A stretch of DNA of 57,650 nucleotides, from positions 1-57,650 of the forward strand of contig CAZVCT010000003.1 of the NCBI GenBank assembly GCA_964625655.1, given 5' to 3'. The notes under the pieces were generated by a model that made no database searches, was not told where the DNA came from, and was given only the letters and a program-made list of their open reading frames with translations. Positions 23,554 through 49,840 of this stretch are shown piece after piece. Both the position numbers and the translations under genes were made by a program. Numbering within the stretch: position 1 is the first letter of the stretch; each line of letters opens with the position of its first letter. The DNA comes from an uncultured bacterium. GTDB taxonomy: Bacteria > Deinococcota > Deinococci > Deinococcales > Trueperaceae.

Positions 23554-23581
<28 letters not shown>

Positions 23582-31498: not shown

Positions 31499-31532
31499 CG
31501 TAACGGAGCCGTAACGCCCGCGCCATTACCTT
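31499..31532 (+). promoter_or_regulatory. CGTAACG direct repeat (11-bp phase) plus TACCTT -10; leaderless promoter of gene 31539
   Basis: CGTAAC at 31499 and 31510, then 11 nt, TACCTT at 31527-31532, then 6 nt, ATG 31539. Confidence 0.55.
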
Positions 31533-31538
31533 CAGCGC

Positions 31539-32753
31539 ATGAACAGGCTTCAGCGGAACCTGACTGGCTTCACCCTTGCTCTGCTCGCCCTGCTCCCCTG
31601 CGTCCAAGCGCAGTCGCTGGCGGGCACCTACGGCCGCGAGATCGCCACCGGGCTGCTCGCGGTCTCGTTCGAGGAGCGCCACGGCATGCTGGTCGGGCAG
31701 ATCGTCATGGGCGGCCTCTCGTACCCCGCCGTCGCCCAGCTCGACGGTGACGGCGCCTACGGCTACGGACGCGTGTACCTCTACATGGGCGGCGGAGTGG
31801 CGTACTTCGAGGTCTCACCAGCGCCAGACGGCGTGAAGCTCGTCCTCGCGTCGCTCGACCCGCAGACGGCGCAGTCCATGCCCTCCACCGCTACGGCTTT
31901 CGAGCTCCAGCCGCTCGACCCGGCCGCGCTCGACGGGCTCCCGTCGGGCGGGCTTCCGCCCGGCAGCCTGCCCGTGCTCGCCGACCTCCGTTACGAGGCC
32001 GGGGAGCGCCTGACCGCTCCAGGCGCCGGCGTCTCGTTCGTCGTGCCCGCCGGCCACCACGCCGGGTACATGCCGGTCTACGACCTCTTCGGCGTCAAGG
32101 CCGACGGAGCGCCGGGCTACGCGCAGGTGGAAGCCTCCTCCAGGCTGGAGCCCGCTGAAGCGCTACGGCAGCTCGAGGCTCGGTGGGCTGCGGGCCATCT
32201 GGAGGTCAGCGCGGCCGGTCCGGCCGAGGTAGAGGGGAACGCGACCCGCATGCGCTACGACGTGCTGTCGCCGGAGGGAGAGGGGACGGCCTACGTCGTG
32301 GTAGTGGCGCCGCCGATGGGCAACGCCATCATGATCGCAGGCATAGGCGTGCGCGGCGCGGAAGCCTGGGTGGCCGAACTGGTGGAGACGATCGTCTCCA
32401 CCCTCCTGATGGATGCGCCGATCGACGTGGAGGAGGTAGGCATCCGCCACATGCTGAGCGGCAAGCGCGCGATCATCGGCGATGGGGGATCGCTCGACAC
32501 CCTGGCCCCCGCCGAGCTGCACCTGTGCGCCGACGGCACCTACCGCTACGCCACCCTCGGAGCGCCGCCGGCGGGGCCGGCGTTCGAGCACACGGGGCGC
32601 TGGTCGGTGCTGGGCAACCTGCTTGGCTCCGACGTGCTGCTGGAACGCTCGGACGGTGGGCCCGACGAGCGACTTACCGTCATCGGGTACGGCGGTGCCC
32701 TGCGGATCGAAGGCAGGAGCCTGGAGCTGGAGGAAGGCGCCCGCTGCGGCTGA
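31539..32753 (+). CDS. Secreted protein of unknown function, paralogue A
   Basis: Signal peptide ...LALLALLPCVQAQ. Shares blocks AGVSFVVPxGxxAGY, VEAxSxL..EAL.QL, RYxVxxPxG, LxLCAxGxY and a C-terminal Cys with gene 43923..45401. Confidence 0.75.
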   Translation: MNRLQRNLTGFTLALLALLPCVQAQSLAGTYGREIATGLLAVSFEERHGMLVGQIVMGGLSYPAVAQLDGDGAYGYGRVYLYMGGGVAYFEVSPAPDGVKLVLASLDPQTAQSMPSTATAFELQPLDPAALDGLPSGGLPPGSLPVLADLRYEAGERLTAPGAGVSFVVPAGHHAGYMPVYDLFGVKADGAPGYAQVEASSRLEPAEALRQLEARWAAGHLEVSAAGPAEVEGNATRMRYDVLSPEGEGTAYVVVVAPPMGNAIMIAGIGVRGAEAWVAELVETIVSTLLMDAPIDVEEVGIRHMLSGKRAIIGDGGSLDTLAPAELHLCADGTYRYATLGAPPAGPAFEHTGRWSVLGNLLGSDVLLERSDGGPDERLTVIGYGGALRIEGRSLELEEGARCG

Positions 32754-32771
32754 TGGGGACGGTCGCCTGGG

Positions 32772-36042
<3,271 letters not shown>

Positions 36043-36156
36043 CGTTTGGCTCCTTTATTCACAGCAAAACCTAGCACGAACCGGGCACGGGTGGCGAGCC
36101 CGCCGGGATGAAGCTAACGCCTCGCTAAGCGTTGTACGGAGCACGGTTCGGCTGCG

Positions 36157-36185
36157 TTGACAGCGCCCGTCCTGCGCCCTAAAGT
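36157..36185 (+). promoter_or_regulatory. Sigma-70-type promoter TTGACA-N17-TAAAGT for the GH2/sugar-importer operon
   Basis: TTGACA at 36157-36162, a 17-nt spacer, TAAAGT at 36180-36185. Lies 25 nt upstream of ATG 36211. Confidence 0.55.
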
Positions 36186-36210
36186 GAAAGCTGCATAACA
36201 ACAGGTTTAC

Positions 36211-38163
36211 ATGAAACGGTCGGAGGCTGGTTTGAGCGACGCAGCGACGGCCGCCGTGGCGGCACATACAGGCGAGGACGGGCGCGAAGACGCGCGTAAC
36301 GTCGATCCGCGTTGGCATCCCCGCCCCACTTTGGCGCGCGCCGGCTGGCGCTCGCTCGATGGCACCTGGCGGTTCGGCCGCGGCCAGCTGACGCGACCGC
36401 CCGCGCTGGAAGGCAGCATCGAAGTGCCGTACGCACCCGAGGCTCCGGCCTCCCAGGCACGCGGCGCGGGCGAAGGGCCGGCCCTCTGGTACGGCCGCAC
36501 GCTGGAACTGCCCGAGGAGTGGCGCGGCGGGCGCGTCCTGCTGCATTTCAACGCCGCCGACTGGGAGACGACCGTCTGGGTGGGCGGCCAGCAGGTGGCG
36601 CACCACGAGGGCGGCTACACGCCGTTCACGGCGGACGTCACCGACCTGGTGCAGGGCGGCCCCACGGAACTGCTGGTGCGCTGCGTCGACGACCCGCACG
36701 ACATGGCGCGCCCCCGCGGCAAGCAGGACTGGCTGCCCGAGCCGCACAGCATCTGGTACCCGCCCACCTCGGGCATCTGGCAGAGCGTCTGGTGGGAGAG
36801 CGTGCCGCAGACGCACTGCTCGTACCTCTCCTTCACCCCCGACCTCGCCGGCTTCGCGCTCGACATGGAGCTGCGCCTGGAAGGCGTGCCCGCCCGCACG
36901 GGGCGGCCGCTGGGAACGCGCACGGACACGGGCGGCGCGGCCGGCCTCACGGCCCGCGTGCGCCTGAGCCTGCACGGCGAGGTGCTGGTGGACGACCGCA
37001 TCGCCGTCACCGGCGACACGCTGCGGCGCAAGCTCTACCTGCCCGACCCCGGCATCGACGACGCGCGCGCCCACTTCCTCTGGAGCCCCGAGAGCCCCAA
37101 CCTGATCGACGTGACGGTCACCCTGGAGAAGGAAGGCAGGACGGTCGACGAGGCGCACGCCCGCACGGCCCTGCGCACCATCGAGGCGCGCGAGGGCGCC
37201 GTGCTGCTCAACGGCCGCCCCTACCGCCTGCGCCTGGCCCTCGACCAGGGCTACTGGCCCGACACGCACCTGACGCCCCCGAACCCCGAGGCCCTGGAGC
37301 GCGACGTGAAGCTGGCGAAGCAGCTGGGCTTCAACGGCGTGCGCAAGCACCAGAAGCTGGAAGACCCGCGCTTCTACGCCTGGGCCGACCACCTGGGTCT
37401 GCTCGTGTGGGTGGAGCTGCCCAGCGCCTACGCCTTCGACGCCCGCGCCGTCCAGCGGCTGACCGCCACCTGGCTGGCGGCCGTGCGGCGCGCAGCCCCT
37501 CACCCGAGCGTCATGGCGTGGGTGCCCTTCAACGAGAGCTGGGGCGTGCCCGACCTGCCCACCTCGGCGCCGCAGCGGGCGCTGGTGCGCGGCCTGGCAG
37601 ACCTGACGCGGGCGCTCGACCCGAGCCGACCCGTGGTGGGCAACGACGGCTGGGAGATGCTGGGCACCGACATGGTGAACATCCACGACTACGAGCGCGA
37701 CCCCAAGGCGCTGGGCGCGCGCTACGGCACGCCCGAGGCCATGCGGCGCGCCTTCGACGAACGCCGGCCCGGCGGCCGGCGCCTGCTGCTCGACCCGGCG
37801 CTCGCCGAAGGCGCGCCCTTCGGTCGGCCCGTGATCCTGAGCGAGTTCGGCGGTGTGCGCGTCGAGGACGGCGCGCCCGGCTGGGGCTACGACGCCGTGC
37901 CCGACGGCGCCGCGCTGCTGAAGCGCTACCAGGCGCTGATGGCCGAGCTCGAGCGCACGCCGCTGGCCGGTTTCTGCTACACCCAACTCACCGACACCTT
38001 CCAGGAGCGCAACGGGCTCCTGAGCATGGACAGGTCGCCCAAGGCCGACCCGGACGCCATCGCCCGCGCCACGCGCGGCGAGGCGCCGCTGGGCCCGACG
38101 GACGAGAAACAGAGGAACGACGCTGGCCGACCCGACACGGCGGCCAAGGAGGAGGAAGCATGA
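36211..38163 (+). CDS. Glycoside hydrolase family 2 (beta-galactosidase/beta-glucuronidase-like)
   Basis: Motifs WRSLDGTWRF, VWVGGQQVAHHEGGYTPFTADVT, NGVRKHQK, PFNESWG. The exact start is uncertain. Confidence 0.8.
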   Translation: MKRSEAGLSDAATAAVAAHTGEDGREDARNVDPRWHPRPTLARAGWRSLDGTWRFGRGQLTRPPALEGSIEVPYAPEAPASQARGAGEGPALWYGRTLELPEEWRGGRVLLHFNAADWETTVWVGGQQVAHHEGGYTPFTADVTDLVQGGPTELLVRCVDDPHDMARPRGKQDWLPEPHSIWYPPTSGIWQSVWWESVPQTHCSYLSFTPDLAGFALDMELRLEGVPARTGRPLGTRTDTGGAAGLTARVRLSLHGEVLVDDRIAVTGDTLRRKLYLPDPGIDDARAHFLWSPESPNLIDVTVTLEKEGRTVDEAHARTALRTIEAREGAVLLNGRPYRLRLALDQGYWPDTHLTPPNPEALERDVKLAKQLGFNGVRKHQKLEDPRFYAWADHLGLLVWVELPSAYAFDARAVQRLTATWLAAVRRAAPHPSVMAWVPFNESWGVPDLPTSAPQRALVRGLADLTRALDPSRPVVGNDGWEMLGTDMVNIHDYERDPKALGARYGTPEAMRRAFDERRPGGRRLLLDPALAEGAPFGRPVILSEFGGVRVEDGAPGWGYDAVPDGAALLKRYQALMAELERTPLAGFCYTQLTDTFQERNGLLSMDRSPKADPDAIARATRGEAPLGPTDEKQRNDAGRPDTAAKEEEA

Positions 38164-39470
38164 AGAGGACCGTAAGGACGCTGTTCGTAGCCCTGGTGGC
38201 GGTGCTGGCCCTGGCCGGCACGGCAGCCGCCCAGGTGCAGCTCACGTACTGGCACGGCTTCACCGGCCCCGACCTGCCCGTGATGGAGAGCCTGATCGCC
38301 GAGTTCAACGAGCTTCACCCCGACATCCAGGTGAGCGGCGAGCCGATCCCCTGGGGCAACCTGTTCCAGCAGATCGAGCCGGCGGTGGCGGCGGGCCGCG
38401 CGCCCGACGTCATGGCCCTCAACGAGGACGTCATCACGGGCTTCATCCTGCGCGGCGCCGTGGCCGAGATGACTCCCGAGATGCTCGAAGCCGCCGGCGT
38501 CGAAGCCGAGCGCTACTTCGGACCCCTATGGGAGACGGGCATGGTCGACGGCACCGTCTACGGCGTGCCCATCCACTCCGTGATGCTGGTGATGTACTAC
38601 AACAAGGACCTCTTCGAAGCCGCCGGCCTCGACCCCGAGAACCCGCCCGCCACGCGCGAGGAGTTCATGGAAGCCGCGCGCGCCCTCACCCAGGACTCGG
38701 CCGGCCTGCACCCGGGCGACGAAGGCTTCAACGCCAGCAGCCTCGCGCAGTACGCCGTCGGCATCCCGAACCCGTGGATGGGCGGCACCATCGCCTACGC
38801 CGTAGCGGCCCAGAACGGCGTGACCTTCGTGGGCAGCGCCGACGAGCAGTACGCCTCCAACTTCGACTCGCCCGAAGCGCAGGAAGCCATCCAGTTCCTC
38901 GTCGACATCGGCGCCGAGCACGGCTTCGGCCCCACCGACGCCACCGAGGGTTCCGAGATCGACGCCTTCCGCCAGGGCGTGGCCGCCATGAACTTCAACG
39001 GCGTCTGGATGCTGTCGCAGTACCAGGAGCAGCCCGGCCTCAACTTCGGCGTGGCGGCGTTCCCGCAGCTGGGCACCGAGCGCGCTGCCACCTGGGGCGG
39101 CTCGACCCACCTCGTGCTGCCGCGCCAGCGCAACGCCGACCAGGCCAAGGTCGACGCTGCCATGACCTTCATCGGCTGGATGACGCAGCCCGAGCAGAAC
39201 CTGAAGTGGACGGCCGCCGGCGGCCTGCCCACGCAGCCGGGCGTGGCCGAAAGCCCCGACTACGCTTCCAACCCGATGTCGCAGCTTAGCGAAGCGATGA
39301 ACAACACCTACGTCCTGACGGGCTTCCCGTTCCTCGCGCAGTTCCGCGGGGCCTGGGACGCCGCCTTCGAAGCCGCGCTGCGCGGCGCCGCGCCGGTCGA
39401 CCAGGCGCTCTCGCAGGGCGTCTCCGAAGCCGACGCCGCCATCCAGGAAGGCCTCCTCAGCCTCCCGTAA
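38160..39470 (+). CDS. Sugar ABC transporter substrate-binding protein (CUT1 family)
   Basis: ATG 38160 forms an ATGA overlap with the GH2 stop, with GGAGGAAG upstream. Signal peptide MKRTVRTLFVALVAVLALAGTAAAQ. Confidence 0.85.
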   Translation: MKRTVRTLFVALVAVLALAGTAAAQVQLTYWHGFTGPDLPVMESLIAEFNELHPDIQVSGEPIPWGNLFQQIEPAVAAGRAPDVMALNEDVITGFILRGAVAEMTPEMLEAAGVEAERYFGPLWETGMVDGTVYGVPIHSVMLVMYYNKDLFEAAGLDPENPPATREEFMEAARALTQDSAGLHPGDEGFNASSLAQYAVGIPNPWMGGTIAYAVAAQNGVTFVGSADEQYASNFDSPEAQEAIQFLVDIGAEHGFGPTDATEGSEIDAFRQGVAAMNFNGVWMLSQYQEQPGLNFGVAAFPQLGTERAATWGGSTHLVLPRQRNADQAKVDAAMTFIGWMTQPEQNLKWTAAGGLPTQPGVAESPDYASNPMSQLSEAMNNTYVLTGFPFLAQFRGAWDAAFEAALRGAAPVDQALSQGVSEADAAIQEGLLSLP

Positions 39471-39490
39471 GGCACGCTTCTCAGCACTAC

Positions 39491-39521
39491 CGGGAGGGCC
39501 GAAACGGAATCGGCCCTCCCG
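39491..39521 (+). terminator. 12-bp perfect hairpin between the sugar SBP and permease genes
   Basis: CGGGAGGGCCGA-aacggaa-TCGGCCCTCCCG. Confidence 0.5.
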
Positions 39522-39541
39522 CCTATCACCCGGAGGTTCAA

Positions 39542-40534
39542 GTGAGCGGACCGACTGCCGAGAACAGTTCGCTGACGGCCACGCAGGCAGCCGTGGCGAC
39601 GCGGCGAGGAGCCGCACGGCGCGCGTTCCTGCGCCCCGCCATCGACGGGCACCCGCTCGAGCCGTACCTATACCTGTTGCCGCACGCCGTTCTCTTCCTG
39701 CTGTTCATCGTCTATCCCGTTGTCTTCGGTATCTACGTCAGCCTGCACCGCTGGAACATCCTGTCGGACAACCAGCCGTTCGTAGGGCTGCAGTTCTACA
39801 CCCGGCTGTTCACGCCGGGCACCCCGCAGTTCGACTTCTTCTGGAAGACGACCCTCAACACCGCGCTCTTCACGGTGATAACCACGCCGCTGATCATCGT
39901 GTGCGCCCTGGGCCTGGCGCTGCTGCTGCATAGGCCCATCCCGGGCCGCGCCTTCTTCCGCGCCATCTTCTTCCTGCCCACCATCCTGTCGGTATCGGTG
40001 ATGGGCCTGCTGTGGCGCTGGATGTTCGAGAACCGCACCGGCCTCTTCAACGTCCTGCTCGACCTGCTGCCGTTCGCCGAGCCGGTGGCGTTCCTGACCA
40101 CCGTCGGCCTGGCGTGGGTGCCGATCATCGTGGGCACGGTCTGGTGGACGGTGGGCTTCAACATGATCCTCTACTCGGCGGCGCTGGCCGCCATCCCGCA
40201 GGCGTACTACGAGGCCGCCGCCATCGACGGCGCCGGCACCTGGGCGCGCTTCCGCCACATCACCTGGCCGCAGCTGAACCCCGTCACGCTCTTCGCGGCC
40301 GTCACCACCACCATCGCCTCGTTCCAGCTGTTCGGGCAGTCGCACGTCATCACGGCAGGCGGACCGCTGCGCTCGACGCAGAGCGTGATGATGTTCATCA
40401 CCGAGGAGGCGTTCACCCGCTACCAGTTCAGCTCGGCGGCGGCGATGTCGCTGACGTTCGGGCTGCTGCTGCTGCTGGTGACGGGCTTCCAGTTCAGGCT
40501 CACGATCCGCGACCTCGGAAGGGGCCGCGCATGA
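39542..40534 (+). CDS. Sugar ABC transporter permease (MalF/UgpA-like)
   Basis: GTG start with GGAGG upstream. Six hydrophobic helices. EAAAIDGAGTWARFRHITWP is the EAA loop. Confidence 0.85.
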   Translation: MSGPTAENSSLTATQAAVATRRGAARRAFLRPAIDGHPLEPYLYLLPHAVLFLLFIVYPVVFGIYVSLHRWNILSDNQPFVGLQFYTRLFTPGTPQFDFFWKTTLNTALFTVITTPLIIVCALGLALLLHRPIPGRAFFRAIFFLPTILSVSVMGLLWRWMFENRTGLFNVLLDLLPFAEPVAFLTTVGLAWVPIIVGTVWWTVGFNMILYSAALAAIPQAYYEAAAIDGAGTWARFRHITWPQLNPVTLFAAVTTTIASFQLFGQSHVITAGGPLRSTQSVMMFITEEAFTRYQFSSAAAMSLTFGLLLLLVTGFQFRLTIRDLGRGRA

Positions 40535-41514
40535 GCGCGCGCGCTCCGGGTCACAGCGCCACCAGCGCCAGCAACGCCACCAGCGCCCAGCCGGCCGAAG
40601 GCACGTTCCGCTCGGTTCCGGTGACGGCGGCCTCGGCGAGGCCCCCCTCCCTAATCGGGGTGCGGGCGCGCACCCAGCGTGGGAAGGGCCGCCTGCGGGC
40701 GGGCGACATCCTGCGCTTCCTGCTGCTGCTTGTACTGGCCATCGTCTTCCTGGCGCCGATCTACTGGATGGTGACCACCTCCCTGAAGACGGAGGCCGCC
40801 ACCGTGGCGCGCCCCGTGCAGTGGTGGCCGCACGAGCCTACGCTCGAGAACTACCGCACCATCCTGCAGTCGCCCAACGCGCCGTTCGCGCGCTGGACGT
40901 TCAACTCGCTCTTCACCTCCACGGCGTTCGCGCTGCTCAGCATCGTGCTGGCCGTGCTGACCGCCTACCCGCTCTCGCGCATGCGCTTCCGCGGCCGCAG
41001 CGTGTGGTTCTGGGTGATCCTCTCGTCGATGATGATCCCCGGCGTCATCTTCCTGATCCCGCACTACCTGATGATGATCGGCTTCGGCTGGGTGGACACC
41101 TATCACGCGCTGATCTGGCCCGGGGTCCCGGCGGCGTTCGGCATCTTCCTGATGCGGCAGTTCTTCCTATCGATCCCGCGCGAGCTCGAGGAGGCCGCCC
41201 GCCTCGACGGCGCCAACAGCTTCCAGACGCTCTGGTACGTGCTGCTGCCGTTCCTGGTGGCGCCGATGGCGACGCTGGGGCTCTTCCAGTTCATGGCCTC
41301 GTGGAACAACTACGTCTGGCCGCTGTTCGTGGTGCACGGCGAGATGCAGACGCTGCCGGTGGCCATCACCACCTTCAGCAGCCGCTACTGGACCGCCTAC
41401 GGCAAGCTGATGGCCGGCACGGCCATCGCCGCGCTGCCCGTGCTGATCGCCTTCCTCTTCGCCCAGCGGTACTTCATCCGCGGGATGTCGCTGACGGGGC
41501 TCAAGGATGACTGA
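40531..41514 (+). CDS. Sugar ABC transporter permease (MalG/UgpE-like)
   Basis: ATGA overlap with the previous stop. EAA loop EEAARLDGANSFQTLWYVLLP. Confidence 0.85.
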   Translation: MSARAPGHSATSASNATSAQPAEGTFRSVPVTAASARPPSLIGVRARTQRGKGRLRAGDILRFLLLLVLAIVFLAPIYWMVTTSLKTEAATVARPVQWWPHEPTLENYRTILQSPNAPFARWTFNSLFTSTAFALLSIVLAVLTAYPLSRMRFRGRSVWFWVILSSMMIPGVIFLIPHYLMMIGFGWVDTYHALIWPGVPAAFGIFLMRQFFLSIPRELEEAARLDGANSFQTLWYVLLPFLVAPMATLGLFQFMASWNNYVWPLFVVHGEMQTLPVAITTFSSRYWTAYGKLMAGTAIAALPVLIAFLFAQRYFIRGMSLTGLKDD

Positions 41515-42721
41515 CCGCTTCTGGTGGCTGGTGGGGATCGAGAACGCCTTCGTTCCCGACATGGACGTCGACGAGCTCGGCTGGACGGGGCACCGCACCC
41601 GGTGGCGCGAAGACCTGGCGTTGGCCGCAGACGTGGGCGCCACGGGCATCCGCTACGGCATCACCTGGCCCGAGGTCGAGGTGGCGCCGGGCCGCTACGA
41701 CTTCACGCAGGTCGACGCCGTCCTCTCCGAGATGGAACGGCTGGGGCTGGAGCCCGTCTGGGACCTCGTGCACTTCGGCGTGCCGGCGCACCTGAAGGGC
41801 GGTTACCAGGACCCCGACTTCCCGGAGGCCTTCGCCGCGTACGCCGAGGCGTTCGCGCGGCGCTACCGCGGCACGGTGCGCAAGCTGACGCCCTGGAACG
41901 AGCCGTACATCAGTGTCTACTTCCGCGGCGGCTGGGGCATCTGGCCGCCGCACCTGAAGGGGCGCGAGGGGTTCGTGCAGCTGTTCGCGCCGCTGATGCG
42001 CGCGCTGCACGACGGCATCAGGCGGGTCGAGCGCGTAGCGCCCGACATGCAGATCTGGCTGAACGACGGCGCCGACACCTTCCACCCGGTGAGGCCCGAG
42101 GTGGCCGACGAGGCGCGCTTCCGCACGCTGCAACGCTACGCCCCCTTCGACGTCCTGCGCGGCCTGGCCGTGCCCGGCCACGAGACCTACGAGTGGCTGG
42201 TGAAGGCTGGCTACCCGCCGCACGAGCTGGAGCGGCTGGCGGCCGAGCCGGTGCGCATCGACGTCATCGGCCTCGACTACTACCCCGAGACGGAGCACGA
42301 CTTCGACGTGGACGAGGCCGGCGAGCCGGTGATCACCACGGCCCGTGAGAAGCTCGGCCTGGCCGCCACCGCGCTGGCCTACCACGAGCGCTTCGGCCTG
42401 CCGCTGTTCGTGGCCGAATCGAGCGCCTCCGGCACCGACGCGCAGAGGCGCGAGTGGATCGAGTGGAACCTGCGAGAGATCGAGGCGGCGCGCCAGGGCG
42501 GCGCCGACGTGGTGGGCTACACCTGGTGGCCGCTGTTCGACCACATCGACTGGAACACGCTGCTGACGCAGCGCACGGGCTTCGTGTGCCCGGCGGGCCT
42601 CTACTCGCTGGTCCCCACCGTGTCCGACAGGCAGGAGACCGACGCGGCGCGCGCCTTCCGCGAGGCGGCGACGCGCTCGGAGGCGGCCGAGACGGCGGCC
42701 GCTGTCGGGAGCGAGCGATGA
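41507..42721 (+). CDS. Glycoside hydrolase family 1-like protein
   Basis: (beta/alpha)8 GH-A pattern. TPWNEP (acid/base) and FVAESS (nucleophile region, divergent from ITENG). Confidence 0.65.
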   Translation: MTDRFWWLVGIENAFVPDMDVDELGWTGHRTRWREDLALAADVGATGIRYGITWPEVEVAPGRYDFTQVDAVLSEMERLGLEPVWDLVHFGVPAHLKGGYQDPDFPEAFAAYAEAFARRYRGTVRKLTPWNEPYISVYFRGGWGIWPPHLKGREGFVQLFAPLMRALHDGIRRVERVAPDMQIWLNDGADTFHPVRPEVADEARFRTLQRYAPFDVLRGLAVPGHETYEWLVKAGYPPHELERLAAEPVRIDVIGLDYYPETEHDFDVDEAGEPVITTAREKLGLAATALAYHERFGLPLFVAESSASGTDAQRREWIEWNLREIEAARQGGADVVGYTWWPLFDHIDWNTLLTQRTGFVCPAGLYSLVPTVSDRQETDAARAFREAATRSEAAETAAAVGSER

Positions 42722-43749
42722 TCCGGCGGCTCCTGGTGGCCCTGCTGCTGCTGAGCGCGGTGGAGGCGAGCATGGCCCAGACGACCGACACGAGCCTGGC
42801 GACCTACGTGAACCCCGTGATCGAGCCCGTGGCGGCCGACCCCAGCGTGATCCGGGCCGACGACGGCTTCTGGTACCTGTACGCCACCCAGGACCGCTGG
42901 GACGACGGCATCGAGCATTACCTGCCCATCTTCCGCAGCGCCGACCTCGTGACGTGGGAGTTCCTGGGCGACGTGTTCATCTTCCCGCCCCGCTGGAAGA
43001 GCCAGGGCTTCCTGTGGGCGCCCGACATCAGCGTCGTGAACGGTGTCTATCACCTCTATTACAGCTACTCGACCTGGGGCGACCCGAACCCGTGCATCGG
43101 CTTGGCGCGCTCCGATAGCCCCGCCGGACCCTGGGAAGACCTAGAGCGGCCCATCTTCTGCTCGGACGACATCGGCGTGCGCAACTCCATCGACCCGTAC
43201 CACCACGTGGCGGCAGACGGCGCGCGCACCCTGATCTGGGGCAGCTTCAACGGCATCCACGCCGTGCCCCTGTCGGACGATGGCACCGAGCCCGCCGGCG
43301 AGCCCGTGCGCATCGCCGACACGCGCTTCGAGGGCGCCTACGTGCACGAGCGCGACGGCTTCTACTACCTGTTCCTGGCGTCGGGCTCGTGCTGCGAAGG
43401 GGCGAACTCGAGCTACGCGACGTGGGTGGGGCGCTCCGAAGAACTGCTGGGGCCCTACCTGGACGACCTGGACCGCAACCTGCGCAGCGGCGGCGGGCGC
43501 ATCGTCGTCTACCGCAACGACGACTGGGTGGGCCCGGGCCACGTGGCGGTGGCCACCGACGACGCCGGCGACGACTGGCTCGTCTACCACGCGATCGACC
43601 CGACCCGGCCGCACCTGCGCAGCGGCGCCACGCGCCGGCCCACCCTGATCGACCGCATCGAGTGGGTGGACGGCTGGCCCGTGGTGAACGGCGACGAGGG
43701 CGCCACCTCGGGCGAGCGGCCGGCGCCGGTGGTGAACGGCGGGGAGTGA
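42718..43749 (+). CDS. Secreted glycoside hydrolase family 43 (arabinanase/galactanase/xylosidase type)
   Basis: ATGA overlap with the previous stop. Signal peptide MIRRLLVALLLLSAVEASMA. Motifs ADPSVIRADDGFWYLY, LWAPDI, FEGAYVHERDGFYYLF. Confidence 0.8.
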   Translation: MIRRLLVALLLLSAVEASMAQTTDTSLATYVNPVIEPVAADPSVIRADDGFWYLYATQDRWDDGIEHYLPIFRSADLVTWEFLGDVFIFPPRWKSQGFLWAPDISVVNGVYHLYYSYSTWGDPNPCIGLARSDSPAGPWEDLERPIFCSDDIGVRNSIDPYHHVAADGARTLIWGSFNGIHAVPLSDDGTEPAGEPVRIADTRFEGAYVHERDGFYYLFLASGSCCEGANSSYATWVGRSEELLGPYLDDLDRNLRSGGGRIVVYRNDDWVGPGHVAVATDDAGDDWLVYHAIDPTRPHLRSGATRRPTLIDRIEWVDGWPVVNGDEGATSGERPAPVVNGGE

Positions 43750-43766
43750 GCGAAGTCGAACGAAGC

Positions 43767-43826
43767 GCGGCCGGGCAGAGCTCGGCCGGGCAGAGCGCGA
43801 CCCGGCAGGGCGCGGCGGGGCGTAAC
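43767..43826. repeat. 15-bp tandem repeat, 4 copies, running into the CGTAAC repeat
   Basis: gcggccgggcagagc tcggccgggcagagc gcgacccggcagggc gcggcggggcgtaac. Confidence 0.8.
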
Positions 43827-43854
43827 GGAGGCGTAACGGACGCCTGACTACCTT
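43821..43854 (+). promoter_or_regulatory. CGTAACG direct repeat (11-bp phase) plus TACCTT -10; promoter of gene 43923
   Basis: CGTAAC at 43821 and 43832, then 11 nt, TACCTT at 43849-43854. Confidence 0.55.
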
Positions 43855-43864
43855 CGGGAGGACG

Positions 43865-43904
43865 GGGCGGGGGCGCGCCAGCGAGCTGCGGCGCGCCCCC
43901 GCCC
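43865..43904 (+). other. 15-bp perfect GC hairpin in the predicted 5' UTR of gene 43923
   Basis: GGGCGGGGGCGCGCC (43865-43879), a 10-nt loop, GGCGCGCCCCCGCCC (43890-43904). GGAGG follows at 43910 and ATG at 43923. Confidence 0.7.
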
Positions 43905-43922
43905 GCCCCGGAGGTGCCCGCC

Positions 43923-45401
43923 ATGACCGGAACCGCGACCCGCAAGCCCCGCACGCGAGCAGCGAACGATCGTCCGAGCCACGAACCGTCACGAGCTTCC
44001 CTCCCCCAAGCGCGCCGCGGATCCCCAGGCGCGCGCCTGGAAAGGGTGCTCGTCGCCATCGCCCTCCTGCTGCTGGCAGCCACGGCCGCGGCGCAGTACG
44101 CGGGCAGCTACGTGCTTCCGACGGACGATGGCACGGTCACGCTGCTGCTCGAGCAGCAGGACAGCTACGTGCAGGGCGAGCTGGACATGTACGGCTCCCG
44201 CTTCGCCGTGAACGGCGAGATCGATGATTCCGGCCTCTACGGCACGATCGGCAGCGGCGCCGACGAGCTCTACTTCGAGGCTGAGCTGGTGGCCGAAGGG
44301 CTCTACCTGATCGCGGCCGCCCTCGACCCCGCCACGGGCAGGCCCGACCCCGCGACCGCCGGCGAGTACCTCTTCCAACGCGCGGCGCCGGTTGCTGAGG
44401 TCGGAGCGCCAGGCACAGGCGCCGCAACGCGCGGCGGGAAGCTTCCCCCGACCAGCGCGCCGGCCGGGCCAGGAGCGCCCGCCACCACCGGGGCGCAGGC
44501 GGGCACGGGCGCCTCTAGCCCTGCCGGCGCCAGCGCCCAGCCCGCCGACATGCAGCCGGCACAGCTCGAGCGCCGCTACGAGGGCGGCACCCGGATCGGC
44601 TCGCACGACGCCGGCGTCTCGTTCGTGGTGCCGCAGGGCTACTACGCCGGCTACCACGCGGGCGAGAACGCCTTCATGGTCGTGTCGGACAGCCAACCGG
44701 GCCTCGTGGTCGTCGAGGCGCTCTCGCACCTGCCGCTGGACGAGGCGCTGGCCCAGCTCGGCACCGCCTTCGCCAGCGGCGACACCACCCTCTACCCGCA
44801 GGGGCAGCCGCAGGTGGCGGACGGGGTCGCCAGGGCGCGCTACTCGGTGGTGACGCCCCAGGGCCAGTTGGCGCTCTACCTGATGGGCGTCGCGGGTCCA
44901 AGCGCCAACGTGCTGATCGTCGGCGGGCTGGGGGCGCCGCACGAGAGCGGCGCCGTCGAGGCGCTCGTCGAGGCGATCGCCGGCAGCACCGTCATGACGC
45001 CGCCCACCAGGGCAAGCGCCCAGAACGCGGCGGCGCAGCTGGCGGGCGCGCGGCTCGGCCGCTCGTCGTCCACGAGCAGCAGCAGCACGAACGACAGTCA
45101 CTTCTCCAGCAGCTCCACCAGCCTCGACCTGTGCGCCAACGGCGGTTACGCCTTCGTCCACCGGTCGCAGGTGAGCGCCAGCGTGACGGGCGTAGGCGGC
45201 GGTGGCGTCGACGCTTCGAGCAGCGACATGGAGGAGGACCAGGGCAGCTGGAGCGTCGAGTCGGGCCTCCTGGGCCCCGTGGTCGTGCTGCGTTCGGCGC
45301 AGGGCGGCGCGCCCACGTTCCTGGGGCTGCTCGAGGCGAGTGGGACGCTCTACGTGGACGGACAGCCGGTGAGGGTAGCGCAGAGCTCCAACTGCTTCTG
45401 A
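43923..45401 (+). CDS. Secreted protein of unknown function, paralogue B
   Basis: Track ORF starts at GTG 43914. ATG 43923 has GGAGG 8 nt upstream. Hydrophobic signal-like segment VLVAIALLLLAATAAAQ. Homology blocks shared with 31539..32753. Carries an extra Ala/Gly/Pro linker and a Ser-rich stretch. Confidence 0.75.
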   Translation: MTGTATRKPRTRAANDRPSHEPSRASLPQARRGSPGARLERVLVAIALLLLAATAAAQYAGSYVLPTDDGTVTLLLEQQDSYVQGELDMYGSRFAVNGEIDDSGLYGTIGSGADELYFEAELVAEGLYLIAAALDPATGRPDPATAGEYLFQRAAPVAEVGAPGTGAATRGGKLPPTSAPAGPGAPATTGAQAGTGASSPAGASAQPADMQPAQLERRYEGGTRIGSHDAGVSFVVPQGYYAGYHAGENAFMVVSDSQPGLVVVEALSHLPLDEALAQLGTAFASGDTTLYPQGQPQVADGVARARYSVVTPQGQLALYLMGVAGPSANVLIVGGLGAPHESGAVEALVEAIAGSTVMTPPTRASAQNAAAQLAGARLGRSSSTSSSSTNDSHFSSSSTSLDLCANGGYAFVHRSQVSASVTGVGGGGVDASSSDMEEDQGSWSVESGLLGPVVVLRSAQGGAPTFLGLLEASGTLYVDGQPVRVAQSSNCF

Positions 45402-45425
45402 GCAGCGCGGGGCCCGGCCGCGAGG

Positions 45426-45459
45426 CGTAACGACGACGTAACGCACGCACGCCTAGCCT
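45426..45459 (+). promoter_or_regulatory. CGTAACG direct repeat (11-bp phase) plus TAGCCT -10; promoter of gene 45478
   Basis: CGTAAC at 45426 and 45437, then 11 nt, TAGCCT at 45454-45459. AGGAGG at 45466 and ATG at 45478. Confidence 0.55.
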
Positions 45460-45477
45460 CGCGGCAGGAGGTCAGAG

Positions 45478-46626
45478 ATGTACCAAGTACCCAACGCGTC
45501 CGCCCGTCGGCCCCGCCACCTGCTGAAGGTCACCCTGATCACAACCCTGATCACAGCCCTGTTCGCCATGCTGCTCGCCGCCTGCCAGACCGGCGCCCCC
45601 GGCGGTGGCGGCGTAGACCAGACCGGCACCCTGCAGGTGAACGTCACAGGCGTCGCCACTGCCGCCGTGAGCGTCACGGGCCCGGGCTCCTACAGCCGGC
45701 AGCTCACGAGCAGCACCACGCTCACCGGCCTCGAGCCCGGCACCTACGTCGTCAGCGCCACGCAGGTGGACACCTCCACCGGCAGCTTCGCCCCCGTAGT
45801 AAGCGGCTCTCCGGCCACGGTGGCCGCCGGCGCCACCGCGACCGCCACCGCCACCGTCACCGTCGGGTACGTCTTCCTGGACCCCACCGCCGTCGGCGGC
45901 CTGCAGATCGACGTCACCGGCCTGGGAACCGACGTGAACGCGGCCATCACGGTGACCGGACCGGGCGGCTTCAGCCAGGCGGTTACCGCCTCGACCACCC
46001 TGACGTCGCTCGTGCCGGGCTACTACGAGGTGTCCGCGGCCAACGTCACGGCGGGCGCCGCCACCTACCGAGCCGTGGTCGACCCCGCAACCGCGCTGGT
46101 GCTGCCCGAGGAGACCGCCACCGTCAGCATCGCCTACGGGCAGGAGGCCGAACAGGACGACGACAGCGCCATCGCCCACGCCGTCTACGCGCAGTTCCGC
46201 CCTACCTCCGGACCGCCCGTCAGTGTGGACGCGCCGCTCTTCAACGAAGCCGCGCTCGACGTGAAGGGCCTCTCGTACCGCAACGACGTCTCGTATCCCG
46301 GCGACGTCAGCGACCATTTGATCTTCGACATCTCCGGAGGCGAGAGCCAGGCGGTGACCATCACCGTGAACCTCGACTGCGGCGCGTACGCCGCGGACCC
46401 GAGCCCCATCCGCGCCCGCTTCTACAGCGCAGGCGGCGACCTCCTGCGCACCATCACCTGCAACGACGGTCCCAGGCAGCTGAGCATCGAGAACTCCGGC
46501 ACGCTGGAGGGGTTCACCGTCGAGATCGCGCCCACCCTCTCGGACCGTCAGTTCTACGTCGCCTATGAGCTGACGATGGACGCCTTCTGCTTCGGCGGTT
46601 GCGTCTACGAGCCGTACGTGCCTTAG
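45478..46626 (+). CDS. Lipoprotein with two tandem Ig-like repeats and a C-terminal PPC-like (pre-peptidase C-terminal) domain
   Basis: Lipobox LLAAC. Two ~85-aa repeats (GTLQVNVTG...VTGPGSYSRQLTSSTTLTGLEPGTYVVSA and GGLQIDVTG...VTGPGGFSQAVTASTTLTSLVPGYYEVSA). The C-terminal segment GDVSDHLIFDISGGESQAVTITVNL is PPC-like. Confidence 0.75.
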   Translation: MYQVPNASARRPRHLLKVTLITTLITALFAMLLAACQTGAPGGGGVDQTGTLQVNVTGVATAAVSVTGPGSYSRQLTSSTTLTGLEPGTYVVSATQVDTSTGSFAPVVSGSPATVAAGATATATATVTVGYVFLDPTAVGGLQIDVTGLGTDVNAAITVTGPGGFSQAVTASTTLTSLVPGYYEVSAANVTAGAATYRAVVDPATALVLPEETATVSIAYGQEAEQDDDSAIAHAVYAQFRPTSGPPVSVDAPLFNEAALDVKGLSYRNDVSYPGDVSDHLIFDISGGESQAVTITVNLDCGAYAADPSPIRARFYSAGGDLLRTITCNDGPRQLSIENSGTLEGFTVEIAPTLSDRQFYVAYELTMDAFCFGGCVYEPYVP

Positions 46627-46656
46627 ATCCGCTCGGCGGTTCAGGGTCCGCTCGGA

Positions 46657-46681
46657 AGTCCTCGCCGATCAGGCGAGGACT
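46657..46681 (+). terminator. Hairpin terminator after the lipoprotein gene
   Basis: AGTCCTCGCC-gatca-GGCGAGGACT, followed by cgTTcaTTcc. Confidence 0.5.
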
Positions 46682-46764
46682 CGTTCATTCCGTCGACACC
46701 ACGCACGTTCGTTCATCCCCGTGCGCGAGGAACCGCGGGTCATCCCGCGTACAATCACCCCACG

Positions 46765-49700
46765 GTGAACCCGATCGTTCGGCTCCTGGGCGGCGACGAC
46801 GCGGGAGGCGAGCAGCTGCCGGCCGACAAGCGCGGCGCGCTGCTCGCCTACCTCGCGTACGACGGCGGCTGGCTGAACCGCGAGCGCCTGGCGTTCCTCT
46901 TCTGGCCCGATACGGACGAAGCCGGCGCGCGCCGCAACCTGCGGCAGCTGCTGAACCGCGTCCGGGCGCTGCACCTGAGCGTGCCCCCCGAGATCGAGAC
47001 GCAGCGCCTGCGCTGGACGGTGCCCACCGACGTGGCAGCCTTCCGGCAGGCGTACGCGCGCCAGACCTGGGCAGAGGTGATCGCCCTCTACCGGGGTGAG
47101 CTGCTCCAGGGCTTCCCCCTCGATGGCGCCAGCGGCTTCGGCGCCTGGCTCGAGCTGGAGCGCGAGAACCTGCGCCAGGCGTACCGCCGCGCCGTAGAGC
47201 GCGCGGCCGAGGCGCTCGAAGAGGCCGGCGACCACGCCGCCGCTGCCGAGCTCCTGACGCCCCTGCTTAACGGTGAGGAACTGGCGGAGGAGGCGCTGCA
47301 GGCCTACATGCGCAACGCCTACCTGGCGGGGCAGCGCGACCATGCGCTGGCCGCCTACCGACGCTTCGCCGCGCGCCTCGAGGACGAGCTCGCCCTCGAA
47401 CCCCTGGACGCCACGCGCGAGCTGGCCGATACGATCACGCGCGCCGCGCCCGTGACAGGTCTGGCGCCGGCACCAGCGCCCGCCGTGCGCACGCCGCTGA
47501 CCGTCCAGCGCCCGCCGCGGGTGGTGGGCCGCGAGGCGGAGGCGCGTCAGGCCCGGACGGCCGCTACCCCGGTGGTGCTGCTGCGCGGCGAGGCGGGGGT
47601 CGGCAAATCGCGCCTCATGGAAGAGCTGGCGCCCGGGGCCGCAGCTCGAACAGTGCGCTGCCTCGAGGGGCTGCGCTCCGTGCCGTACCAGCCGATCGTG
47701 GAGCTGGCGCGAGGTTCCATGACGGCCGGCCTGGACCTGAGTTCTCTTGGCGACTACCGCGACGACCTGGCCCGGCTGCTGCCGGAGGCGCTGCCCGCTC
47801 AGCGGCCGCCGCCCGCCGACCCGGCCACGGCGAAGGCGCGCCTGCTGGAGGCGCTGGCGCGCTTCCTCGAGCTGGCCTTCCAAGGGGCCGAGGGGCGCTT
47901 CGACCTGCTGTTCGACGACCTGCAGTGGGCCGACGACGGCACCCTCGAGCTGCTCTCGTTCCTCGCCTCCCGGCGCCGGCTGCGGCTGCTGGGCGCGTTC
48001 CGCCGCTTCGAGGAAGGCCCGCGCCTGTCCGCGACGCTGGCCGCGCTGCGTTCGGACCACGCTCTGACGGTGGTCGAGCTGGAACCGCTCGGCGAACCCG
48101 AGCTTAGGCGCCTGCTGGCCGAGCTGATCGGCGTGGACGAAGGGCCGGCCGCCTTCAGCCAGTGGCTGCACAAGAGCAGCGCGGGCAACGTGATGTTCGC
48201 GCTCGAGACCCTCAAGTCGCTGTTCGAGGCCGGCGTCCTGCGGCTCGGCGAGGCGGGGTGGAGCACCGAGCTGGACGCCATCACCCGCGACTACAGCGAG
48301 CTGGAGACGCCGCGCGCCATCGCCGAGGTGGTCGAGCGCCGCGCCGGGCGCCTGTCCAGCGAGGCGCTGCGGGCGGTGCAGGCAGCAGCCGTGATGGGCC
48401 AGGACCTCGATCCGGCCACCGTGGCGCGGGCGGTGGGGCTCTCGGAGTGGGCGGCCCTGGATGCCTTCGACGAGCTGGAGCGCAGCGGCATGCTGGCTGG
48501 GAACGCCTTCCGCCACGACCTGCTTCGGCAGTCCGTCTACCGGAACCTGCCCCAGGCGCGGCGGAGGCTGCTGCACGGCAGGGTGGCGCAGGTGCTCGAC
48601 GCGGGCGAGCAGCCGATCGTGGTCTCCGAGCACCTGCTGGCCGCCGGCGAGTTCGGCCGCGCCGCCTCGCTGCAGTTGGGCGCGATCAGCGAGCTGGAGC
48701 GGCTGGGCCTCACGGAGCAGGCGACGGCGCTGCTGGAGACGAGCATCGCCACCATCGAGCGCGAGAGCCCGGGGCACGAGGCGCTCCTGAGGCTCAGGGC
48801 GGGCCTCGCGGGCGCCTACCGCACGGCGGGCCACGCCGAGCGGTCGCTGGCGCAGGCCGAAGCGGTGCTGGCCGAAGCCACCGACCCCTACCTGCTGGCC
48901 TCCGCACTCGAGACCAAAGCGGGGTTGCAACTGGGTTCGGGTCAGCTCGAGGAGGCGCTCGGGACGGCGCAACGCGCCCAGGAGCTGGCCGAACGCGTCG
49001 GCGCCGAGCGGCTGGCCCGTAGCGCCTCGGTGCTGGTGGCATCGGTGGCCTACTACCAGGGGCGGTTCGACGACGCGCTCGAGATCGTGAAACGCAACGT
49101 CGAGGCGCTCCGCGCGGACGGCACCGACATCGATCTCGCCAGCCAACTGACCAGCCTGGGCGCCATCCACGACGACCTCGGGCGGCACGAGGAGGCTCTG
49201 GGAGCCCACCAGGAGGCGCTCGGCATCGCGCAGCGCCTCAGGTCGAAGTTCGTGCAGGTGAACGTCGCGATGAACCTGCTGCAGTGCCTGATGGCGCTGG
49301 GGCGCCCCGAAGAGGCCCTTGGCGTGGCGCGCGAGGCCCTGGCTCTGGGGCGGTTCGATAGCACCGCCACGCTGCGCAACAACTTCGCGGCCTCCCTGAT
49401 GGACCTGGGGAGGCTGGACGAGGCGGAGGCCGAGTTCGCGGTGCAGCTGGAGGAGGTCTCCGACCCGACGCTTCGCGCGCTGGCCCTGGCACGCCTCGCG
49501 CGCATCCACCACGCCCGGGGACGGCACGCGCAGGCGCGCGAGGCCCTCGAGCAGGCGCTGGAGCAGGCGCGGCTGACCGACTACCCGGTCGCGCGCGTGT
49601 CGGTGGCGCGCTCCCTGGTCGACGTGGGCGACGAGGCGCTGCAGCGCGAGCTGCCCGACCTGCTGCTGGGCCTGGACGACAAGAGCCTGCCGCCCGAGCT

Positions 49701-49812
49701 GCGGCCGACGCCGGCTACGGACGCACCCGATGCGGAGGCGCCCGATACGGGAACGCCCGATGCGGGAACGCCTGACGCGGCGACGCCCGACGCGCGGGCG
49801 CCAGGGGCGTAA
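46765..49812 (+). CDS. AfsR-like regulator: SARP wHTH + BTAD, STAND/AAA ATPase, TPR repeats
   Basis: N-terminus: LPADKRGALLAYLAYDGGWLNRERLAFLFWPD...ARRNLRQLLNRVR (OmpR/SARP wHTH), followed by BTAD. Walker A LLRGEAGVGKS, Walker B LLFDDLQWAD. About 450 aa of TPR-like repeats. C-terminal pentapeptide repeat APDxx. TACAAT -10 lies 9 nt before GTG 46765. Confidence 0.85.
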   Translation: MNPIVRLLGGDDAGGEQLPADKRGALLAYLAYDGGWLNRERLAFLFWPDTDEAGARRNLRQLLNRVRALHLSVPPEIETQRLRWTVPTDVAAFRQAYARQTWAEVIALYRGELLQGFPLDGASGFGAWLELERENLRQAYRRAVERAAEALEEAGDHAAAAELLTPLLNGEELAEEALQAYMRNAYLAGQRDHALAAYRRFAARLEDELALEPLDATRELADTITRAAPVTGLAPAPAPAVRTPLTVQRPPRVVGREAEARQARTAATPVVLLRGEAGVGKSRLMEELAPGAAARTVRCLEGLRSVPYQPIVELARGSMTAGLDLSSLGDYRDDLARLLPEALPAQRPPPADPATAKARLLEALARFLELAFQGAEGRFDLLFDDLQWADDGTLELLSFLASRRRLRLLGAFRRFEEGPRLSATLAALRSDHALTVVELEPLGEPELRRLLAELIGVDEGPAAFSQWLHKSSAGNVMFALETLKSLFEAGVLRLGEAGWSTELDAITRDYSELETPRAIAEVVERRAGRLSSEALRAVQAAAVMGQDLDPATVARAVGLSEWAALDAFDELERSGMLAGNAFRHDLLRQSVYRNLPQARRRLLHGRVAQVLDAGEQPIVVSEHLLAAGEFGRAASLQLGAISELERLGLTEQATALLETSIATIERESPGHEALLRLRAGLAGAYRTAGHAERSLAQAEAVLAEATDPYLLASALETKAGLQLGSGQLEEALGTAQRAQELAERVGAERLARSASVLVASVAYYQGRFDDALEIVKRNVEALRADGTDIDLASQLTSLGAIHDDLGRHEEALGAHQEALGIAQRLRSKFVQVNVAMNLLQCLMALGRPEEALGVAREALALGRFDSTATLRNNFAASLMDLGRLDEAEAEFAVQLEEVSDPTLRALALARLARIHHARGRHAQAREALEQALEQARLTDYPVARVSVARSLVDVGDEALQRELPDLLLGLDDKSLPPELRPTPATDAPDAEAPDTGTPDAGTPDAATPDARAPGA
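49723..49812 (+). repeat. 15-bp tandem repeat, 6 copies, encoding (A/T)PDxx at the C-terminus of the AfsR-like protein
   Basis: gcacccgatgcggag gcgcccgatacggga acgcccgatgcggga acgcctgacgcggcg acgcccgacgcgcgg gcgccaggggcgtaa. The last unit contains the stop codon and the first CGTAAC. Confidence 0.85.
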
Positions 49813-49840
49813 CGGCGCCGTAACACCGGCTGCGTACGCT
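49808..49840 (+). promoter_or_regulatory. CGTAACG/CGTAACA direct repeat (11-bp phase) plus TACGCT -10; leaderless promoter of gene 49847
   Basis: CGTAAC at 49808 (overlapping the TAA stop of the regulator) and 49819, then 10 nt, TACGCT at 49835-49840, then 6 nt, ATG 49847. Confidence 0.55.

Follow-up and report, generated by a model that had tools for sequence, protein, structure and literature searches.

Regulators of the SARP (Streptomyces antibiotic regulatory protein) and AfsR-like type have been studied almost only in actinomycetes, as antibiotic-production switches. AfsR of Streptomyces coelicolor, a protein of ~1000 aa, joins a SARP DNA-binding part to an NB-ARC/STAND ATPase and a TPR domain, and SARP sites generally are heptamer direct repeats arranged in 11-bp units that overlap the -35 region (PMC10972967). 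At the afsS promoter, the 22-bp afs box is centred at -29.5 and consists of two 11-bp direct repeats, the upstream one (DRup) running from -40 to -30; the box overlaps a poor -35 element, two SARP protomers occupy it next to one another, one to a repeat, of which the first 8 bp are contacted, and the protomers offer region 4 of the sigma factor an alternative docking point (PMC10936776). afsS is the canonical AfsR target, the HD motif is important in AfsR-like regulators, and a recent survey of AfsR-like NLR-type regulators covered Actinomycetota only and stressed that their targets are unknown (10.64898/2026.09.02.748808). A search of the available literature library turned up no publication that connects AfsR-like regulators with Deinococcus, Truepera, or Meiothermus. 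Here we describe a 57,650-base stretch of DNA (~71% G+C) from an uncultured bacterium of the Trueperaceae (contig CAZVCT010000003.1; the whole stretch is called the window below), in which four promoters share a direct-repeat box, CGTAACG-N4-CGTAAC; the boxes are probably the operators of a large AfsR-like regulator encoded in the same DNA, here called REG (46765..49812, + strand).

An earlier note on this DNA, made from the letters by eye, had reported four such paired repeats, each followed by a TANNNT hexamer, and had proposed that these promoters are the targets of a SARP-type activator whose gene also lies in the window. The repeats are real: an exact search for CGTAAC-N5-CGTAAC returned exactly four matches, at 31499, 43821, 45426, and 49808, all on the + strand, and in 100 dinucleotide-preserving shuffles of the window the paired motif occurred a mean of 0.00 times, with a maximum of 0. 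Box a (CGTAACGgagcCGTAACGcccg; 31499..31520), made of two 11-bp direct-repeat units, lies 14 nt past the stop of an ABC permease gene; it is followed by box b (CGTAACGgaggCGTAACGgacg; 43821..43842), box c (CGTAACGacgaCGTAACGcacg; 45426..45447), and box d (CGTAACGgcgcCGTAACAccgg; 49808..49829). The hexamers past the pairs are TACCTT (31527..31532), TACCTT (43849..43854), TAGCCT (45454..45459), and TACGCT (49835..49840), all on the + strand, and direct reading of the sequence bears out the reported spacings of 11, 11, 11, and 10 nt. Seven of the eight heptamers read CGTAACG, as had been counted and as both the sequence and a position weight matrix (PWM) agree; the exception is CGTAACA, the proximal copy at 49819. 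All four pairs stand at gene starts and on the strand of the gene, and we call the genes behind them A, B, C, and D. The description of all four as intergenic was right as to strand and has to be amended for site d, which is not purely intergenic: the TAA stop of REG (49810-49812) lies inside its distal CGTAAC, an overlap also found in the closely related locus L001.

The PWM, built from 11 sites, scored the four boxes at 29-33 bits (a, 32.7; b, 30.7; c, 29.3; d, 32.0), with the next best site at 20.4 bits (position 20175) and the remainder at 15 bits or less. The site at 20175 (CCTAACG..CGTAACC, 1-2 mismatches) runs antisense in a minus-strand gene for an AzlD-like membrane protein beside an AzlC gene and has no TANNNT behind it; we read it as a chance match. 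Unpaired CGTAAC hexamers do exist, as had been noted, with coordinates that were a few bases off; they start at 2340, 5020, 20186, 21224, 21285, 29553, and 36295. CGTAACG is an odd palindrome whose orientation is given by its central A only, and minus-strand matches with two mismatches are trivial.

The boxes are conserved in relatives, where they accompany REG. The DNA inspected amounted to 57 kb for the source genome and to no more than 23 kb for any of the relatives (12-57 kb per locus). Exact boxes were found in 3 of 79 related loci and in 0 of the other 76; the three are the closest relatives, with REG 54-72% identical, and have three sites (L001), two sites and a degenerate third (L002), and two sites (L003). 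Gene order is ABC permease, box, B, box, C, REG, box, D, and an M28-family peptidase gene in L001, and box, B, REG, box, D, and the M28 gene in L003. Orthologous boxes precede B in L001 (4783), L003 (5763), and, in degenerate form, L002 (2535; TATAACGcgccCGTAACG, 10 nt, TACCGT), and precede C in L001 (6220) and L002 (4149), the exact boxes of L002 being those before C and D. At the orthologous B, C, and D promoters the 22-bp box and the -10 hexamer are conserved and the flanking DNA diverges; the proximal variant CGTAACA is common to the boxes in front of D in all four genomes (the window and L001-L003).

Beyond these closest relatives, we compared a set consisting of the window and 15 loci with both REG and D (L001-5, L007-9, L014, L015, L018, L081, and L083-85), which includes Thermus sp. 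CCB_US3_UF1 (CP003126) and a Meiothermus sp. metagenome-assembled genome (MAG). In an alignment of 12 genomes anchored at the start codon of the D ortholog, an 11-bp direct repeat is followed by 8-11 nt, a -10-like hexamer, 6-7 nt, and the ATG or GTG of D, the whole arrangement lying directly after the stop of the REG ortholog. All 16 loci carry an 11-bp direct repeat and a -10-like hexamer right after the REG stop, and in 15 of them the D start codon lies 6-7 nt past the hexamer; in the exception, L085, other genes come after that box, and D is the last gene of a box-driven operon ~5 kb downstream. Further boxes stand before adjacent cargo genes in 11 of the 16. A locus-specific scan found 1-4 boxes per locus; every one shares the strand of REG and falls within -15.3 to +4.4 kb of it, and the rest of the inspected DNA has none. 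In Thermus sp. CCB_US3_UF1 the order is REG, box, D, box, and a 1039-aa gene, with a later box before an 897-aa gene, and in the Meiothermus genome the three boxes lie in front of D, of a dienelactone-hydrolase/peptidase-like gene, and of a 317-aa gene. The linkage between boxes and the REG family was seen in Trueperaceae, Thermus, Meiothermus, and MAGs labelled Burkholderiales; since genomic context and cargo differ completely between genera, the boxes travel with REG and D.

The half-site itself varies among these loci: it is CGTAACG in Trueperaceae, TGTAACG in L005, TGAAACG in L008, TGAGACG/TGTAACG in Meiothermus and Thermus, TGAGACG in L014, TGATACG in L084, and (A/G)TTGACG in L015, L018, and L085. 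The predicted recognition helix of REG varies alongside, with ARRNLRQLL accompanying (C/T)GTAACG, ARHNLRVxLHR accompanying TGAGACG/TGTAACG, and (A/G)LHNLRxNLHR accompanying ATTGACG, a co-variation of sequences that is suggestive of REG as the binder. In L018 the box after the REG stop (6952-7002) has three to four phased 11-bp units (TTGACG / TCGAAG / TTGACG / TTGACG), as do some Streptomyces SARP sites.

By domain architecture and modelled fold, REG is a member of the large-SARP (AfsR-like) class. Its 1015 aa comprise an N-terminal winged helix and BTAD, a STAND ATPase, and a C-terminal TPR domain. Genes were called by codon-position G+C, and selected open reading frames (ORFs) were then scanned with Pfam, which in REG matched BTAD (6e-15), AAA_16 (2.7e-20), TPR_12 (3.8e-19, four matched stretches), and other TPR models. 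A Walker A motif (GEAGVGKS, residues 275-282), a Walker B motif (LLFDDLQWAD, ~384-393), and FRHD (582-585) are present, and the F-x-HD motif is kept in 17 of 19 homologs. Homologs of residues 1-245 are named DNA-binding SARP family transcriptional activator or AfsR/SARP family, some with PF00486. When compared with the PDB, a 44-sequence profile matched AfsR (8k60, E 1.7e-33, profile positions 4-307) and EmbR (E 4.6e-28, positions 3-292); a narrower 16-sequence profile reached only the BTAD part of AfsR, and the full-length sequence matched only TPR proteins and, marginally, EmbR. The AF2 model of residues 1-245, built with an alignment from database matches, has a mean predicted local distance difference test score (pLDDT) of 94.8, and the top six Foldseek matches of this model were AfsR, in transcription initiation complexes, and EmbR, with template modelling (TM) scores of 0.62-0.69, the seventh match having an E value of 0.035. 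REG thus has the features of a large SARP: a winged helix with BTAD, a STAND NTPase with the HD motif, a C-terminal TPR domain, and a candidate operator phased at 11 bp. It is not an AfsR ortholog, because the NCBIfam AfsR equivalog NF053617 scores 43.7 bits against a cut-off of 1430, in a match confined to the TPR part. The earlier note had ascribed a SARP winged helix plus BTAD to two proteins of the window; Pfam, profile, and fold agree for REG, and the other, encoded at 23554..26019, proved only weakly SARP-like.

The closest relatives of REG come from MAGs labelled Deinococcales (72% identity), Trueperaceae (56% and 54%), and Meiothermus and Truepera (40-43%), and more distant ones are labelled Rubrivivax or Burkholderiales. 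A Streptomyces or other actinomycete context for the window was considered and ruled out, the nearest relatives being Trueperaceae/Deinococcales MAGs and hence Deinococcota, as was a biosynthetic gene cluster, the neighbors being ABC transporters, glycoside hydrolases, and peptidases.

Set beside the described systems, the locus most resembles AfsR and its small neighbor. In both structure and profile comparisons the DNA-binding part of REG matches AfsR best, and the boxes share with the afs box the two 11-bp direct repeats at about -40 to -19 that overlap an absent -35. In Streptomyces, afsS (63 aa) lies immediately downstream of afsR; here the regulator gene is directly followed by a box-bearing small ORF (54-73 aa), both in the window and in 14 of the 15 related loci that have REG and D. 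The differences are that AfsR is an actinomycetotal protein and REG belongs to Deinococcota, with a SARP-domain identity of ~23-24%; that the afs box repeat is not CGTAACG; that the AfsR target is a pleiotropic antibiotic regulator, whereas the candidate targets of REG are envelope or secreted proteins and a peptidase, with promoters predicted to be leaderless; and that AfsS has a repeat structure, which D does not. Small SARPs (ActII-ORF4, DnrI, and RedD) and the large PolY and RslR3 likewise use heptamer repeats in 11-bp units over the -35 region, with several promoters clustered at the regulator (PMC10972967); they differ in belonging to biosynthetic clusters in another phylum, and REG has mostly two repeats per site (three to four in L018) and carries STAND and TPR domains. 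EmbR of Mycobacterium tuberculosis, the second-best structural match to REG (TM ~0.64), shares the winged helix and BTAD but has an FHA domain instead of STAND and TPR and is under Ser/Thr kinase control. Within the same phylum, DnrS of Thermus thermophilus is a BTAD activator that has been studied genetically, attempts to obtain in vitro biochemical data being reported as unsuccessful (PMC5748679); it has an N-terminal GAF domain and a C-terminal BTAD and is an oxygen/nitrate master regulator, and its architecture and targets are unrelated to those of REG.

The geometry of the boxes fits a SARP-type mode of activation. With +1 placed at ATG 31539, box a covers -40 to -19, its two repeats beginning at -40 and -29, and the -10 box occupies -12 to -7, in register with the afs box. 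Leaderless starts are the rule in this phylum: of the mRNAs of Deinococcus deserti, 47% begin precisely at the start codon, with a -10 motif directly upstream and no conserved -35 (PMC4007540). A start codon placed 6-7 nt past the -10 is characteristic of such mRNAs. Leaderless mRNAs are predicted at promoters a and d, because the start codon sits where transcription would begin. We conclude, with a probability of roughly 0.78, that the boxes are operators to which REG binds to activate the four promoters; the proposal of the earlier note that they are target promoters of a SARP-type activator of the window is supported, at the level of sequence comparison, by their conservation, their linkage to REG, the predicted SARP fold, and the afs-box geometry. 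By analogy to AfsR, two SARP domains would bind side by side, one per 11-bp unit, covering about -40 to -19. The target promoters have a weak, GC-rich -10 (TAsCyT) and no -35, and the bound REG dimer would, again as in AfsR, take the place of the contact that the housekeeping sigma factor makes with a -35, thereby recruiting RNA polymerase ("sigma adaptation"); its effect would be activation rather than repression. The STAND ATPase and TPR domain would gate REG activity in response to a putative signal.

The regulon would consist of four transcription units: A (leaderless), B, C (reading through into REG), and D (leaderless) with the M28 peptidase gene. REG starts 139 nt downstream of C with no box between them, and in L003 REG directly follows B, an arrangement which suggests positive feedback; the C transcript probably reads through into REG. 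Such feedback would not be universal, because the Thermus REG has its own TACAAT promoter.

Other binders were weighed against REG, in the first place the 821-aa protein encoded at 23554..26019 on the - strand (p821). Residues 627-786 at its C-terminus resemble a SARP winged helix and half a BTAD; p821 has no Pfam or PDB sequence match, its C-terminus aligns to the SARP profile in hhalign with 91% probability (E 1e-6), and tblastn matches it to the REG N-terminus of L083 (E 7e-6). The DNA-binding-like module lies at the C-terminus, the reverse of the usual domain order. A syntenic ortholog, 67% identical, is found in L003, ~1.8 kb upstream of the box before B. Beside p821 lies a second, divergent pair of direct-repeat boxes (26320..26384, both strands): TGAAGCGggttTGAAGCG at 26367-26384 on the + strand, TGAAGCG-N4-TGAAGCG, followed by 10 nt and TACCGT, and TGGAGCGcgttTGAAGCG at 26337-26320 on the - strand, TGGAGCG-N4-TGAAGCG, followed by TAGCCT. 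These boxes are kept in L003 (4298 on the + strand and ~4262 on the - strand; region 4262-4315) and are probably the operators of p821 itself. The + box is upstream of a gene for a 50-aa secreted peptide (ATG 26433), and the - box is upstream of a small ORF (ATG ~26263) that precedes p821; a further copy of the TGAAGCG type was seen in L022 (16365-16382), 3.6 kb downstream of a REG homolog.

Several points weigh against REG as the binder. p821 is syntenic with the boxes in L003, a member of the Trueperaceae, and the contigs of L001 and L002 end where p821 would lie. In metagenomic contigs of other lineages, OmpR-family response-regulator genes (L112, L125, and L159) and the gene of a 163-aa winged-helix protein (L113) stand behind CGTAACG-N4-CGTAAC and TANNNT and look leaderless. 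Pfam Trans_reg_C gave no match to the REG of the window, even at E values up to 1, so that its winged helix rests on the family profile and the predicted fold. The recognition helix and the half-site co-vary along the phylogeny, and their agreement is therefore no independent test. Finally, the regulon appears local within the DNA inspected, which is a statement about these loci and not about whole genomes; a metagenome scan for the CGTAACG repeat returned at least 120 loci, mostly chance matches or other lineages, and among the matches listed, window genes had none but distant homologs on any contig, which makes the scan uninformative on remote targets in the source genome. The synteny of p821, together with the match of its C-terminus to the SARP profile and to the REG N-terminus, would allow a reading in which the p821 winged helix binds the CGTAACG boxes and REG is merely a target gene. 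We consider this very unlikely: tblastn found no p821 homolog in the 6-10 kb on each side of REG-D in Thermus, Meiothermus, and the other loci that keep boxes; its putative recognition helix, GGMRGMMTRVRS, is unlike that of REG; and p821 is a less likely binder of CGTAACG because different repeat boxes, with -10 hexamers conserved in the window and in L003, adjoin its own gene. One box type per regulator is the simplest reading.

The repeats before the response-regulator and winged-helix genes of other lineages are probably autoregulatory, and they show that winged-helix regulators have this half-site in common; as these other regulator genes carry the same repeat, the binder cannot be told from the half-site alone. 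The architecture of PhoB-type boxes is the same, in that a winged helix binds two 11-bp direct repeats which replace the -35 element ~10 bp upstream of the -10, and the boxes of the window might accordingly be sites of an OmpR/PhoB-type response regulator encoded elsewhere, with REG near them by coincidence or as a member of that regulon. A pho box is bound by a phosphorylated receiver-domain protein with a global regulon, whereas the boxes described here track REG and have no such gene linked to them: Pfam scans of the codon-bias-selected ORFs of the window, and of the genes called in the Thermus and Meiothermus loci, found no receiver-domain (OmpR-type) regulator. Across the 16 loci, whose neighboring genes are otherwise unrelated, the boxes keep close to REG, differ in sequence between REG clades, and are absent from the rest of the inspected DNA, and the sites of a global regulator would not be expected to follow a mobile REG-D module; we therefore regard this explanation as unlikely. 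That the repeats are read directly by a sigma factor of the extracytoplasmic function (ECF) type, with GTAAC as its -35, is hardly credible, even though ECF -35 elements are often GGAAC or GTAAC. The gaps from GTAAC to the hexamer are 11 nt (proximal) and 22 nt (distal), neither of which fits a 16-18-nt spacer; the hexamer is TANNNT, not the ECF-type CGTC; 16 of 16 loci have the element twice, in exact helical phase; and Pfam scans of the window ORFs found no linked sigma factor gene. A plain sigma-70 promoter was also considered. A 17-nt spacer would set the -35 hexamers at CGGAGC (the one at promoter a), CGGAGG, and CGACGA, none of which on direct reading is like TTGACA, and a consensus scan for sigma-70 -35/-10 pairs found 0 promoter-like sites in 43700-50200; this absence and the 11/22-nt spacings rule the plain sigma-70 reading out.

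The small gene D accompanies REG homologs in every locus examined. Box d overlaps the REG stop, and the TACGCT hexamer, 10 nt past the pair, is followed by 6 nt and the ATG of D (49847..50068, + strand), which encodes a 73-aa member of a conserved orphan family. A motif DL(R/K)TGE..EF is conserved and the C-terminal Leu-Arg is invariant in 12 aligned members of 54-73 aa, and the copy in the window carries a 16-aa insertion. The family has 98 database homologs, all named hypothetical and none with a Pfam domain, some of which were used to fetch further loci; D lies at most 5 kb downstream of a REG homolog in 16 of 16 checkable loci. An AF2 model of D is of the beta3-alpha type with moderate confidence (pLDDT 69.6), and comparison with PDB folds gave no match (best E 0.9). 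The gene for the M28-family peptidase (50082..52442, + strand; 786 aa; Pfam Peptidase_M28, 4.5e-44), which has a multi-pass membrane domain, begins 14 nt after D and is syntenic in L001-L003; the two genes are probably co-transcribed.

The REG-D module, which occurs in Trueperaceae, Thermus, Meiothermus, and MAGs labelled Burkholderiales, invites a wider reading that we offer only tentatively and think doubtful: REG and D may be an ancient, horizontally mobile two-gene module parallel to AfsR-AfsS and predating or standing outside Actinomycetota, in which an NLR-like SARP switch always drives a leaderless 54-73-aa protein from a box at its own stop, D serves as effector or feedback partner, and lineage-specific secreted cargo acquires the box. 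If so, the C-terminus of D might dock in the REG TPR domain, or D might act on RNA polymerase. D can be flagged as a likely functional partner of REG.

Genes A, B, and C encode secreted or envelope proteins without a known family and make up, with D and the M28 peptidase, the candidate targets; none of A, B, C, and D has a Pfam or NCBIfam family match. Gene A (31539..32753, + strand), which begins 6 nt past the TACCTT of promoter a, encodes a 404-aa protein, secreted to judge by a signal peptide recognized by eye, and is a paralog of B (28% identity, E 7e-38). Gene B (43923..45401, + strand; alternative GTG start at 43914) encodes a secreted protein of ~492 aa whose 13 homologs are all named hypothetical and come only from Trueperaceae-like sources. 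Between the TACCTT of promoter b and the ribosome-binding site, the predicted 5' leader of B contains a GC-rich hairpin (43865..43904, + strand) with a 15-bp stem, almost pure G+C, with a predicted RNA fold of -48.2 kcal/mol (z -2.75); GGAGG and then ATG 43923 follow the hairpin. L001, whose B appears to be leaderless, lacks the hairpin, which may act as an attenuator or stabilizer. At promoter c, the TAGCCT is followed by 6 nt, AGGAGG (45466-45471), a further 6 nt, and ATG 45478, and this short leader with AGGAGG is arranged in the same way in L001 and L002. Gene C (45478..46626, + strand) encodes a 382-aa predicted lipoprotein (LAAC motif) with repeated Ig-like segments; orthologs are present in L001 and L002 and absent in L003.

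The order of genes along the window is a run of peptide-type ABC transporter genes (27883-31485), box a, A, an 11-kb sugar-utilization block, box b, B, box c, C, REG, box d, D, and the M28 gene; the sugar block encodes GalT, an ArsR-type regulator, GH2, a solute-binding protein, permeases, GH1, and GH43. L001 has a single copy (B) directly after the ABC permease gene, and the window has both A (31539-32753) and B (43923-45401), each with its own box. In the window the gene seems to have been duplicated together with its promoter, and the 11-kb block (32772-43749) to have been gained between the copies.

What is new here is a computationally defined operator, a promoter geometry, and a small local regulon for the AfsR-like family in Deinococcota. 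They amount to no new regulatory principle; they place a known type of switch outside antibiotic producers and show that a box at -40 to -19 in place of a -35 is not peculiar to actinomycetes, with "sigma adaptation" as the mechanism that we infer alongside it. Cultured Thermus and Meiothermus strains carry this AfsR-like regulator family, and their thermophilic proteins and the structurally well-known Thermus RNA polymerase would make them a suitable test bed.

A CGTAACG box was also seen in metagenome contigs beyond the 16 REG-D loci. In L097, L153, L188, and L205, small membrane proteins (N-terminus M.(V/G/F/.)SRREERRMKVS...) are encoded behind CGTAACG-N4-CGTAACG, TA.ATT or TAGAGT, 6 nt, and ATG, which points to a further SARP-type regulon, in another lineage, that uses this half-site; a distant REG-like protein (28% identity) is encoded in L153 as well. 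L110 has the same box, hexamer, and ATG, and no ORF of 40 aa or more is readable there. Elsewhere in the window, 4760-7963 (- strand) encodes a 1067-aa protein with an N-terminal GGDEF diguanylate cyclase domain, a STAND NTPase (AAA_16/NACHT), and TPR, another NLR-like switch, coupled to cyclic di-GMP synthesis. The region 13800-16700 is low in G+C (0.61 versus ~0.71), has weak matches to HTH_IclR, NTP_transf_8, and an AAA_21/AbiEii-like ATPase, and may be an acquired toxin-antitoxin or defense islet; a RhuM-family gene lies at 56266-57276 on the - strand.

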